Origin: Octopus vulgaris
Lineage: Eukaryota
Assembly (NCBI GenBank): GCA_951406725.2
Contig: OX597828.1
Location: 63,736,001-63,800,000 of the forward strand
Direction of reading: 5' to 3'
Length of the DNA stretch: 64,000 nucleotides
The notes below the pieces were generated by a model. It saw only the letters and a program-made list of their open reading frames with translations. It made no database searches and was not told the DNA's origin. The position numbers and the translations under genes were made by a program. Shown here one piece after another: positions 2,350 through 6,435 of this stretch. Every line of letters starts with the position of its first letter. Positions within the stretch are counted from its first letter, which is position 1.

Positions 2350-3420
2350 TAAGTATATATATGTTTATATATATATATGTTATATATATATATATGTATA
2401 TATATATATATATATATATATATATATATATATATATATATATATATATATATATATATATATATATATATATATATATATATGTATATATATATATGTA
2501 TATACATATATGTATATACATATATGTATATACATATATATATATATATATATATATATATATACATATATATATATATATATATATATATATATATATA
2601 TATATATATATATATATATATATATATATACAAGAGTATATATATATATATATATATATATATATGTATAAAGGGAAAGTTTACGAAAATAAACAAAAGA
2701 CGAAGCAGGTGGTGTACAAACAAACAGATGTATTAGTATAGCGCTCAGGTATATAAAAAGTCTTTTACGTTTCGAGCCTACGCTCTTCTACAGAAAGGTA
2801 CACAGAAGAAACAAGGAGAGAAACAAGGAGAGTAAAAAAATGTGTGTAATAGCTAACGATCTATCATGGCGTCTGACTCGGACAGAATGGTCAGACGGGA
2901 AGGGGAAAGTACGGGAGATAACAAGGTCAAGATGTATATATATATATATATATATATATATATATATATATATATATATATATATATATATATATATAAT
3001 ATATATATATATATATATATATATATATATATATATATATATATATATATACACAGATATATATATATATATATATATATATATATATATACATATATAT
3101 ATATATATATATATATATATATATATATATATATATACACAAATATATATAATTACACACAAATAATATATATATATACACAAATACATATATATATATA
3201 TATATATATATATATATATATATATATATATATATATATATATATATACGTCCTAGCGTTATTGTGTTTTTTGTGTTTTCTTGTTTGGATTAACTATATA
3301 TAGATATATATATATATACAAATATATATATATATATACACAAATATACAAATACATATATATATATATATATACAATTATATATATATATATATATATA
3401 TATATATATATATATATACA
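2350..3420. repeat. (TA)n microsatellite cluster
   Basis: Direct reading. Confidence 0.95.
2762..2797 (-). ncRNA. Minimal hammerhead-ribozyme-like motif within a Penelope-like repeat (about 2672-2930)
   Basis: Minus strand cuuu-CUGUAGA-A-GAGC-guag-GCUC-GAAA-CG-UA-aaag: stem I, stem II, palindromic ACGU stem III; core position 6 is U. Confidence 0.6.
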
Positions 3421-4731
3421 TACACACATAATTATATGCTCACACTCACATATTTATGTGTATATGTATGTATCTATCAATGTATGTATATCCAGTTGAA
3501 TCTAACAAATTCCTTTTAATTGTTTGCGCTATGACTACAAGTGCGTGTGGCCATGCACAGACAAATATGACTCTATCAAAATGCAACGCTATCACTTGCA
3601 ATGCATAGTTTCAAAAAAAAAAAAAGAAACGTTTTTAGCCTAAAAATATTCTCGTAGAACAATTCGAAAAAGAAAAGAAATTAAGAAAAAATATGAAACT
3701 AAAAATAATTTAAAAAAAAGACTGCTGTAAACAAATGAAGTCAGAAGAAGAAGAAGAACAATATGAAAAAAGTCGAAAATATTTGTGAGAAAATGCGTTT
3801 ATGTTAGTAAGGTTTGTCGGTACAAGAAGTAATTGGTAGCGTTAGGTTTCGTTGAGGGGGAGGGAGAGAGGGAAAGGGAGAAAAAGAGAGGGAGAGACGG
3901 AGAAGGAAAGACATTGAAAATTTGCATGCAATTGGATTGACTTCTAAATCTCTCTCTCTCTCTCTCTCTCTCTCTCTCTCTCCTTTGACTTTTACGATAT
4001 TCATTTCGGCGAATTACAGTATATTATAGGTGTCAACACAACCGCATAAATACTCATCCATACACACACACACTCGCACACGTAAATGTACATCCACATC
4101 CATACACACATGTATGTGTGTGTGTGTGTGTATATATATATATATATACATATATTTTTAGGATATACATTATATATATATATATATATATATAGAGAGA
4201 GAGAGAGAGAGAGAGAGAGATTACGTATATCCTAAACAAGATATCCAGTAACTCTGTACACGTGTAGAGTACGTAGAAACAGGCGTGTAACAGTTTATAA
4301 TAAATACATAGTCAAATGAGTTGGGATGTGTGTGCAGCACTCATAACTACCTACCTACCTAACTACCTAAATAAATAAATAACTATATATATATATATAT
4401 ATGTGTGTGTGTGTGTGTGTGTGTGTGTGTGTGTGTGTATATATATGATGTAGACGCGTCTCATAGTGGTTGGGGTGTTGTATTGATGATTGTGAGATTG
4501 TGATTTCGTATCTGGGACCGGGCAACACAATGTGGTCTCTAGCGAAACATTTCGTTTCATGTTGCCGCAGTGTACCAGATGGCAAAAAATGAGTTATCCG
4601 TCCCGTCCAGGGGAGTATATTTCCACCTCTGAATCCGGAATACCAACCTTGTGAGCCTTTATGACTGCGCGTGTATCGTTGGCGATTTTATTTCCTCCGT
4701 CTTTCCTTCCTTAGATCTTTCCTTTTTCTAT

Positions 4732-4766
4732 GTTTCTGACGAAGAGCTCCGCTCGAAACCTTAAAT
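4732..4766 (+). ncRNA. Minimal hammerhead-ribozyme-like motif (repeat about 4665-4865)
   Basis: guuu-CUGACGA-A-GAGC-ucc-GCUC-GAAA-CC-UU-aaau: canonical CUGANGA core, stem III mutated. Confidence 0.55.
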
Positions 4767-5014
4767 CCTCCTTCTTTCCTTTCCTTTCCTGAGCGTCCAA
4801 TAACACTATACTTGTTCCACGTCCTCGCGTTGTTGTGTTTTCGCTTTGTGTTTTCATGTTTGGATTATATATATATATATATATATATATATATATAGAT
4901 GTGTGTGTGTGTGTGTGTGTGTGTGTGTGTGTGTGTGTGTATATACATAGATATGTATATGTGTATATATATATATATGTCTTTTCTCTCCTTTCTGTGT
5001 TTTTTCTCTGTGTA

Positions 5015-5052
5015 TCTTTCTGTTGAAGAGCGTAGGCTCGAAACGTTAAAGA
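5015..5052 (+). ncRNA. Minimal hammerhead-ribozyme-like motif (repeat about 4980-5150, same family as 2672-2930)
   Basis: ucuuu-CUGUUGA-A-GAGC-guag-GCUC-GAAA-CG-UU-aaaga. Confidence 0.6.
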
Positions 5053-6435
5053 CTTGTTTTATTTATATTTCCTGAGCGCCATACTAATACAATTGTTTGT
5101 TTGTATTCCACCTGCCTTCGTCTTTTGTCTATTTTCATAAAGATTCCCGTTATATATATATATATATATATATATATATATATATATATTATATGTATAT
5201 ATATATATATATATATATATATATATACATATATATATATATATATACATACATATATATATATATATACATACATATATATATATATATATATATATAT
5301 ATATATATATATATATACATATATATGCACACAGACTTATGTATACACATACGCACATCGTATTTACCCAAGTTATGTGATATCCAACATTCTACTCGCA
5401 ATCCGTATTTAGCTTCTACTTCCGTTCATCTTCACATTAAATGATATACGATTATAATACACTAAAAAGAAATAAAACGAAAAGTTTACTCAAATCGCCA
5501 TTTTATTTTTCGACACCCGAACGGTATACAAAAGTTAACAATATGTATGTGCGTGTGTATGTATATATATATATATATATATATATATATATATATATAT
5601 ATATATATATATATATATATATATAAGTGTGTGTGCGTGTGTATTATATATATATATACACACACACTACTTAAAATGAATGACACGTGGAGAATAAATC
5701 AATGTGCGTACTTAAAATAAACATAATTATTCTCAGACTTCATATATGTATATATGTTTGTATATGTGTATATATGTTTATATACGTATGTGTGTGTATG
5801 TGCATATATATATATATATATATGCACGCACACATACACACTTACACACGCATTCGTTGTTTTTACTGCATAATAGCATATCACAACTTTTGGTAAAGTT
5901 GAGCATGTGCTTTTACAGACTGCAAATTGGAGGCAACTAGGACACCACTCACCAACAACTTTCCTGTCCATATTTGTTGTCGGATGATAGCTTGTTGTAC
6001 TTTTATAATCGTAATGATGATATTAGTTTTCTTTCTAATTTTAGCACAAGGCTAGCAATTCTGGAGTATTTAGGGCATAAGGCGATTACATGGACTCCAG
6101 TACATTACTGGTACTAATTTTTCAACCTCGAAAGGATAAAGGCAATGTAAATTGCGGAATTTGCACTCTGGACCTAAGACGGACGAAATATAGCTAAGTA
6201 TTTTGCCCGGCTTGGTAACAATTGTGCCGCAAGATTGTCGGAAGGTGTCGAAATCGTAGTGATGTTTGGCCGACATCACTACTGATAAGGGATTAAGAAC
6301 ATCTGGATCCGTTGTGAGTTTTCCTTTTCGGATTTCTCCACGTAAATTCCTTTTGTCTGGATTACTTATCCCTTATCAGTTCCTATTCGCTTACACACAC
6401 ACACACACACACACACACACACACACACACACACA

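Follow-up and report, generated by a model that had tools for sequence, protein, structure and literature searches.

The 64,000-nucleotide stretch of the Octopus vulgaris genome analysed here (the window) carries repeats that resemble hammerhead ribozymes but have U at core position 6, where A is treated as invariant. It raises two questions: whether such a CUGU core is copy-level decay or a fixed state, and what kind of element carries it. The original prediction read the repeats as a non-autonomous, microsatellite-associated retrozyme family in which U6 might be fixed.

The window repeats in fact derive from an autonomous Penelope-like element (PLE), of which they are 5′-truncated 3′ ends. 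The PLE unit of 4.45–4.57 kb encodes a single ORF of ~960 aa with RT followed by GIY-YIG, the arrangement of EN+ PLEs; ORFs are uninterrupted in 10 of 20 cases, with a mean pairwise distance of 0.5%. Domain searches placed RVT_1 above its cut-off (E 2e-7) and GIY-YIG weakly, below its cut-off (E 3e-4 to 8e-3), while direct reading of the ORF disclosed the YIG motif and CCHH residues, a DKG motif and a CX4CxxC linker (CSRPRCRTC). A PDB sequence search gave no relevant match. Two direct-repeat cores lie ~4.5 kb apart in 17 of 20 long-ORF loci, and terminal repeats differ by 1.3 substitutions within an element versus 4.1 between elements (17 loci). Partial tandems acting as pseudo-LTRs, 5′-truncated copies and inverted copies, as expected of EN+ PLEs, were all present, including inverted pairs (L016/L017 and L056) and tandem arrays (L092/L093). 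The ORF starts ~750 nt 3′ of the core, a long pyrimidine tract lies 5′ of the core, and copies share a fixed 3′ end at an internal TATATA, ~100 nt past the predicted cut on its 3′ side, followed by (TA)n.

Two Neptune features, microsatellite targeting and a CX2-5CxxC linker ahead of GIY-YIG, suggest a Neptune/Nematis-type PLE; the linker is common to both clades. Further likeness to Neptune/Nematis PLEs (Craig et al. 2021, PMC8557442) includes the C-terminal GIY-YIG with CCHH, the DKG motif, partial tandems, inverted truncated copies and microsatellite bias, whereas the core here is non-canonical.

Copy A (2673–2928, minus strand) was assigned by identity and tree position to the U6-A7-A17 subfamily as a 5′-truncated PLE 3′ end, with 81% identity to the young unit over 2893–2673 and 87% to L178 over nearly its whole length. 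Its minimal hammerhead (2762–2797), identified by sequence, reads CUUU-CUGUAGA-A-GAGCguagGCUC-GAA-ACGU-A-AAAG on the minus strand with the core starting at 2793. Stem I is formed by 2797–2794 and 2765–2762, followed inward by the core (2793–2786; U6 at 2790, A7 at 2789), stem II (2785–2774), GAA (2773–2771), the palindrome ACGU (2770–2767) and A17 (2766), and hammerhead numbering predicts a cut between 2766 and 2765. Upstream, a CGCCATG motif (2865–2871, minus), which resembles a YY1 site, marks a putative transcript start, beside which the 5′ ends of short copies cluster.

Copy B (4982–5150, plus strand), likewise 5′-truncated, was assigned by identity (94% to the young unit) to the youngest subfamily, U6-U7-U17, and terminates at the fixed 3′ end of the PLE. 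Its minimal hammerhead (5016–5051; sequence and fold) is identical to that of full-length elements and reads CUUU-CUGUUGA-A-GAGCguagGCUC-GAA-ACGU-U-AAAG on the plus strand from a core start at 5020. Stem I pairs 5016–5019 with 5048–5051, enclosing the core (5020–5027, where U6, U7 and the extra A occupy 5023, 5024 and 5027), stem II (5028–5039), GAA (5040–5042), ACGU (5043–5046) and U17 (5047), with a predicted cut between 5047 and 5048. The two copies, first described as one repeat, come from the same PLE but from different subfamilies. Copy C (4662–4866, plus), 94% identical to L213 and L192, represents a sister PLE lineage; its canonical CUGACGA core (at 4736) stands as first described, but stem I is GUUU/AAAU, loop II has 3 nt, and stem III has decayed to the non-palindromic ACCU, versus ACGU in relatives.

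All four truncated relatives proposed earlier match family copies: a C-lineage 3′ tail fragment (3248–3295, plus), a 3′ tail piece from an older U6 subfamily (10799–10835, minus), an A6 sister-lineage copy truncated within stem II (12101–12212, minus) and a C-lineage piece upstream of the core, free of hammerhead (59534–59579, plus). The proposed microsatellite association was also confirmed as one with (TA)n: a (TA)n-rich tract surrounds copy A and the 3248 fragment (2354–3422, unstranded) and another immediately follows copy B (5151–5326, unstranded), both likely insertion targets. The hammerhead pattern matched twice in the window versus 0 in 100 shuffles; in an Rfam scan of the window, hammerhead was absent among the 150 matches listed of 487, those listed being microsatellite-driven.

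Genome-wide, the hammerhead pattern gave 22,908 matches and its reversed control none. Position 6 was U in 21,705 matches (~95%) and A in 473. Leaving the core free in the pattern raised the count to 23,514, with nearly all of the first 100 being CUGU; leaving position 6 free for the youngest subfamily returned U6 at 30/30 loci, and all 88 cores of 60 long young loci carry it. Because ~95% of copies and all young full-length elements have U6, it is the fixed consensus of the lineage and not copy-level decay, as the original prediction had suspected. The other features of a minimal type I hammerhead are present, namely stems I and II, G12-A13-A14, A15.1-U16.1, H17, C3, U4, G5, G8 and A9, together with the palindromic ACGU of the PLE kind that had been proposed; the exception is position 6, with U in place of A in 21,705 of the 22,908 matches.

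The extra A after A9, earlier taken for a variant, belongs instead to the metazoan PLE hammerhead consensus CUGANGAH published by Cervera and De la Peña (2014; PMC4209133). The minimal hammerheads described there share with ours the type I layout, a short stem I, an extra nucleotide between 9 and 10.1, G10.1-C11.1, a palindromic 15.1-16.1 with stem III absent, a pair of copies around an RT-EN ORF, and a majority of single, truncated copies. A core variant reported there is U3-A8, whereas here a whole lineage has changed A6 to U and a sister lineage U4 to C. We found no A6U hammerhead in print in the literature covered, from which Lünse et al. 2016 was left out.

Over 11 subfamilies, grouped by hand, 0/29 hammerhead-constrained stem and core sites changed, versus 52/114 in the flanks (p 4e-7 by Fisher's test; p 7.5e-4 when restricted to the 13 sites of the core and stem III); for part of the sampled copies, the search patterns had themselves fixed some of these 'invariant' positions. 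N7 changed seven times, above any flank site (maximum 5), and N17 four times, to C, A and U but never to G; G8, G12, A9 and the ACGU palindrome showed no change. Since the 29 constrained sites are unchanged while N7, N17 and the flanks vary, the sequences indicate selection on the hammerhead fold in spite of A6U. Loop II, too, shows no variation (0/4 sites changed), a constancy that catalysis does not need. Stem covariation, the check proposed originally, was absent at the subfamily level within the U6 lineage (33 double changes at pair 10.2-11.2), where stems are invariant, but compensatory pairs do distinguish lineages (stem I CUUU/AAAG vs GUUU/AAAC; stem II GAGC/GCUC vs GGAC/GUCC). A U6 subfamily with compensated stem II was rejected: 6 of 89 GGRC/GYCC matches were U6 copies, four of which were placed inside the U6 lineage tree, in no single clade. 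The A6 subfamily S0 was dropped as the ancestor and is a reversion or side branch, because in the tree the older U6 copies branch off basally to S0 (modest support).

The sister lineage has independently fixed another core change, U4C (8,703 of 12,734), to which its youngest copies add a stem I mismatch; in one copy of this lineage, a PLE endonuclease region lies 2.8 kb upstream. In folding predictions, an off-state helix rose from P 0.01–0.03 to 0.96 with U6 in the two youngest subfamilies (57-nt context), and was weak in two older subfamilies (P 0.02–0.67) and, with 130 nt of context, in the majority of subfamilies. An off-state helix common to A6U and U4C was ruled out, as C4 of the sister lineage does not form it. 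For copy B, a hammerhead dimer was predicted at −12.9 kcal/mol versus −21.6 for two monomers, so the dimer would need help; single-strand folds were not better than shuffles (z −0.45 to 0.79).

Copy ends bear on how the element is templated. The copy sample left out young-family loci from the protein search, except two. Short-copy 5′ ends cluster ~60–90 nt upstream of the core: 82 of 103 copies (L110–L129 left out) end ≤92 nt upstream, as do 13 of the 30 youngest, four of them exactly at −80. By comparison, none of 26 longer-than-unit copies extending past the second core ends in that zone (0/26 vs 13/30, p 7e-5; second-pass count without L353, which had no 3′ core found, and L093, at an edge). 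This pile-up in short copies and its absence in long ones fits templating of the long copies by a circle. At the predicted cut itself, four matched patterns revealed no 5′-end pile-up (29 versus 20, 21 and 29 in controls, p 0.35; of 38 matches at and adjoining the cut, 29 lay exactly there), nor was any seen by eye in 35 distinct loci among the first 100 matches listed.

On balance, we lean towards reading the repeats as autonomous PLE 3′ ends with a lineage-fixed A6U whose motif is likely a slowed, probably protein-assisted self-cleaving ribozyme. Two precedents support such attenuation and assistance: the hammerhead of the anole PLE cuts only with its own protein (PMC11167929), and the natural A6C hammerhead of phage Bcep176 is slow with Mg2+ (PMC3088659, PMC7151607). 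The latter shares a natural substitution at position 6, although it is a single phage sequence with C6, as opposed to U6 in >21,000 copies and about ten subfamilies. The reading is weakened by a saturation study in which single CUGA-turn changes left little activity and rescue came solely from a C3-G8 swap (PMC9901934), by the missing pile-up at the cut, and by anole insertion in vitro, on which catalytic mutants had no effect (PMC11167929). The lack of subfamily-level covariation in the U6 lineage, the invariant loop II, the patchy off-state helix, the unfavourable dimer energy and folds no better than shuffles also speak against it. The anole Poseidon element PAc (Frangieh et al. 2024, PMC11167929) also resembles the octopus PLE in a copy 3′ end downstream of the cut, pointing to internal priming, and in plausibly protein-assisted cleavage. 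PAc primes at a site lacking homology to its target and has an ORF that begins within stem II, unlike the octopus PLE, whose 3′ end at an internal TATATA matches the (TA)n target and whose ORF begins ~750 nt past the core.

Under this slowed-ribozyme model, transcription would start ~80–86 nt upstream of the core, and reverse transcription would start at an internal UAUAU paired with nicked (TA)n DNA. Priming at the first UAUAU of uncut linear RNA could yield the ~200-bp copies filling the genome. A transcript's two hammerheads, separated by 4.5 kb, would pair via ACGU and cut slowly, and the cut unit RNA, closed into a circle, would template longer-than-unit copies. U6 may lower the rate, partly via the off-state helix with ACG of stem III, and thus avoid premature template cutting. 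A stronger version, possible but held only tentatively, is that A6U and U4C, fixed independently in the genome's most abundant pair of PLE lineages, are deliberate down-tuning, with U6 cutting together with an element protein, N7 serving as a rate dial and slow cutting splitting the output between linear and circular templates.

It is rather unlikely, in our judgement, that the U6 motif does not cut at all, and that its fold, hammerhead-like or rod-shaped, persists as a binding or positioning site for the PLE protein while longer-than-unit copies arise when the template jumps from one repeated end of a linear RNA to the other or by tandem-array read-through. The damage done by A6 changes in vitro, the lack of 5′ ends clustered at the cut, the invariant loop II and anole PLE insertion in vitro without cleavage (PMC11167929) all fit a non-cutting fold, as does the origin of every core-spanning copy from RNA intact at the cut; U4C followed by a stem I mismatch in the youngest sister-lineage copies looks like erosion, and tandem arrays (L092/L093) exist for read-through. 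However, only N7 and N17 change freely, N17 stays within H, which is a catalytic rule, and G8, G12, A9 and the ACGU palindrome are unchanged. Template jumping is further opposed by copy ends, since ~40% first-pass failure at −80 predicts second-pass failure in that zone, where 0/26 end.

We consider it quite improbable that the 37-nt block is kept for a DNA-level or splicing role favouring U6, as an internal promoter or as a 3′ splice site after a pyrimidine tract. Such a role would suit the long tract 5′ of the core, the putative transcript start 80 nt upstream and the invariant loop II, and in Drosophila virilis the intron of Penelope terminates at helix I (PMC4209133). A promoter or splice signal, though, gives no reason for N7 and N17 as sole free sites, and no splice joint was listed in three presumed-RNA contig sets, a weak test. 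Non-LTR retrozymes (PMC7229834; bioRxiv 10.64898/2026.07.22.740005) resemble the octopus PLE in their type I hammerhead, likely circular intermediate and PLE ancestry, but they are short non-coding tandem repeats (150–450-bp head-to-tail units, each with a hammerhead), whereas the octopus copies are dispersed truncations of a coding element and its short copies single truncations. A non-autonomous retrozyme family, suggested by the prevalence of short copies, or U6 as copy-level decay is hardly credible for the U6 lineage: its copies are 5′-truncated parts of a coding element, the loci examined showed no hammerhead repeats in short head-to-tail arrays, and U6 occurs in 95% of copies and all young full-length ones.

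Published genome searches rely on CUGANGA descriptors (PMC8557442) and would therefore miss the commonest PLE hammerhead seen in the octopus genome. In a dated series of about ten subfamilies, N7 and N17 alone shift, which provides an unusually clean natural record of how selection acts on a ribozyme whose core is 'forbidden'. The natural pairs A6/U6 and U4/C4 are at hand for the question of what PLE hammerheads do, and the 5′-end pattern offers a genomic argument on circular versus linear templates that is testable on RNA.

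The two U6 hammerheads were read from the sequence in copy A (2673–2928, minus strand) and copy B (4982–5150, plus strand). In each, stem I is CUUU/AAAG, the CUGU(A/U)GA box is followed by one additional A, stem II reads GAGC-guag-GCUC and is followed by GAA and the ACGU palindrome, and position 17 is A or U. The CUGU-core hammerheads of the original prediction are thus present; the motif pattern matched the window twice and none of 100 shuffles. Copy C, the sister-lineage repeat at 4662–4866 (plus strand), has the canonical CUGACGA core that had been claimed for it, with stem III decayed to ACCU, and all four truncated relatives proposed earlier match fetched family copies. 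An unrelated, older dispersed repeat lies directly before copy C (4445–4600), ~72% identical to pieces of loci L176, L197, L122 and L030.

U6 had been proposed as a fixed variant rather than copy-level decay, and genome-wide counts (G000; 2.8 Gb, 227 contigs) bear this out. With positions 6 and 7 left free, the motif gave 22,908 exact matches (control, 0), comprising 21,705 with U6, 473 with A6 and, by subtraction, 730 with C or G. A search that left the whole core open, constraining just stem II plus two bases at either flank, yielded 23,514 matches; almost all of the first 100 contain CUGU, and each of the four bases was seen at position 7. When stem II was freed, GAGC/GCUC was kept, bar scattered changes, in the first 100 of 19,868 matches. 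U6 was present in 88/88 cores of 60 long loci. Contigs from sequencing runs of organisms labelled B, C and D that span the region list no alternative base at position 6, and one of those of organism B is an exact match to the core. Fixation of U6 is nearly certain.

Family copies share a fixed 3′ end ~120–131 nt from the core start, followed by (TA)n; their 5′ sides are cut at variable points, and the longest reach a GIY-YIG reading frame. A protein search with the GIY-YIG piece returned 150 scored matches at 98–100% identity, many in open frames of 800–1,200 codons. Among the 20 loci with the longest frames, 17 have an ORF flanked by two direct-repeat cores 4.45–4.57 kb apart. Against domain profiles the ORF scored above cut-off for RVT_1 and below it for GIY-YIG; it carries DKG, a CX4CxxC linker and CCHH residues, marks of Neptune/Nematis Penelope-like elements (PLEs) in the available part of PMC8557442. 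The ORF is uninterrupted in 10/20 of these loci with a mean pairwise distance of 0.5%, and therefore the family is young; the copy B hammerhead is identical to those of young long loci. Older copies of both the U6 and the A6 kind likewise have endonuclease remnants upstream (65–91% amino-acid identity). The identity of the element, a known type in a young autonomous lineage, is nearly certain. In young copies including L098 (7420–7780), the reading frame lacks a stop codon directly behind the endonuclease and extends 50–120 codons into a variable-length, pyrimidine-rich 3′ UTR. The young element also forms arrays of two or three 4.5-kb units joined head to tail (L092/L093; G000:C8:57.97 Mb; C2:62.84 Mb; C1:149.24 Mb).

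Selection on the fold was examined in 133 copies grouped by hand into 11 subfamilies, with trees built on ribozyme-masked sequence and changes scored as majority letters along a ladder of approximate order. Stem and core sites changed in 0/29 cases vs 52/114 for flank sites (Fisher p 4e-7), a comparison in which search patterns fixed some sites in part of the sample, each part being released in turn by the core-free and stem-II-free searches. The comparison with the flank also held when restricted to the 13 sites of the core, extra A and stem III (p 7.5e-4). Hammerheads leave two positions free, N7 and N17: N7 shows seven changes, more than any site in the flank, whilst the four changes at N17 involve the letters C, A and U but never G. 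Changes at position 6 are confined to the surroundings of one small A6 subfamily (L004, L032, L033, L034, L036), which nests inside older U6 copies with modest tree support and is possibly a reversion to the canonical core. Loop II GUAG (5032–5035 in copy B) is invariant across the subfamilies; no catalytic rule fixes loop II, and a protein or tertiary contact may be responsible. Of the stem covariation on which the original prediction turned, none was detected at subfamily level inside the U6 lineage (copies of the 11 subfamilies plus genome matches), whereas lineages do differ in their stem pairs: stem I has CUUU/AAAG in one and GUUU/AAAC in another, and older A6 groups (L256–L285) have stem II GGAC/GUCC (89 matches) with varied stem I pairs. 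The U6 core is kept under hammerhead-shaped constraint. Divergence from the majority spans 0.7–14%; at the octopus rate of 0.0036 per million years given in the accessible part of PMC13282606, should it hold here, U6 would be roughly 25–45 million years old.

Copy ends bear on the RNA template. In tandems the 3′ end runs on through fixed TTATATATT into the 5′ UTR, and the copy end therefore lies at an internal TA motif ~100 nt past the predicted cut, where priming on nicked (TA)n would occur. No pile-up of 5′ ends was found at the predicted cut (29 ends; 20, 21 and 29 for control sites of equal TA overlap). Terminal repeats differ by 1.3 substitutions on average within an element vs 4.1 between elements, and those of one element have diagnostic letters in common (17 loci). 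Across all subfamilies, 82/103 copies have a 5′ end ≤92 nt upstream of the core, a count in which older subfamilies may be under-extended; 48 of these lie at 58–92, beside CGCCATG. For the youngest subfamily the figure is 13/30, four exactly at −80, with 0/30 between 87 and 368 nt. Short-copy ends cluster just before CGCCATG (2865–2871, minus strand, in the window; also L373, L377, L378, L386), a motif that we take to resemble a YY1 site; the pile-up may mark the transcript start. In either pass, the youngest subfamily shows no 5′ end from about 90 to 300 nt upstream of the core (L366–L395; L090–L109, L326–L365), and none of its single copies longer than the unit goes beyond 1.35 units.

More than one unit is present in 28/59 measurable long loci. 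A 5′ end is visible in 27 of these: in one it falls downstream of the second core, and the other 26 extend 300–1,440 nt past that core; none of the 26 ends ≤92 nt upstream of the second core, vs 13/30 youngest-subfamily copies at the core (p 7e-5). If the template were a linear RNA with its start at −80 and priming at the distal end, long copies should stop at −80; none did. The pattern fits long copies made from a circular template and short copies from an uncut linear one, but template jumping or tandem read-through may instead account for it.

In copy B, the hammerhead dimer folds at −12.9 vs −21.6 kcal/mol for two monomers, and cleavage would therefore need help. A predicted helix pairs the CUGU box with ACG of stem III, closed by U6 with A15.1. 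Its probability in the two youngest subfamilies is 0.96 with U6 vs 0.01–0.03 with A6; it is 0.02–0.67 in two older subfamilies and lower in most subfamilies in longer context. Fold computation with U4C gave no such helix. We lean modestly towards a U6 hammerhead that would still cut.

The accessible parts of published work describe a nucleotide added after A9 as the PLE norm, with consensus CUGANGAH and low dimer activity (PMC4209133); a natural A6C that is slow with Mg2+, and a U4C that lowers activity in a still infectious viroid (PMC3088659, PMC7151607); low activity of CUGA-turn mutants (PMC9901934); and internal priming, with cleavage protein-assisted and dispensable in vitro (PMC11167929). 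Further context comes from parts of PMC7229834, PMC6765202, PMC6155905, PMC11014351 and bioRxiv 10.64898/2026.07.22.740005. Our literature search found no report of A6U or a CUGU core, although the large PLE hammerhead variant survey of Lünse et al. (2016) may list A6U; the sole 'A6U' match was a twister paper. U6 is a core change for which we located no published precedent, and it is fixed in an autonomous, young lineage of known element and ribozyme types.

The copy C lineage (e.g. L220–L249) has 12,734 matches in the genome, 8,703 of them with CCGA (U4C); a general pattern finds 7,976 minimal hammerheads with canonical CUGANGA. C4 copies lie nearer to one another than U4 copies do (median nearest distance 0.025 vs 0.072), and the younger members of this lineage have U4C as a fixed change. 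Some of its youngest copies carry a stem I U-U mismatch and C17. Of three C4 copies traced upstream, one has a PLE endonuclease region in the same orientation at a distance of 2.8 kb, with continuity seen over 1.5 kb only. With U4C in the copy C lineage and U6 in the other, the CUGA turn has therefore changed independently in both abundant lineages.
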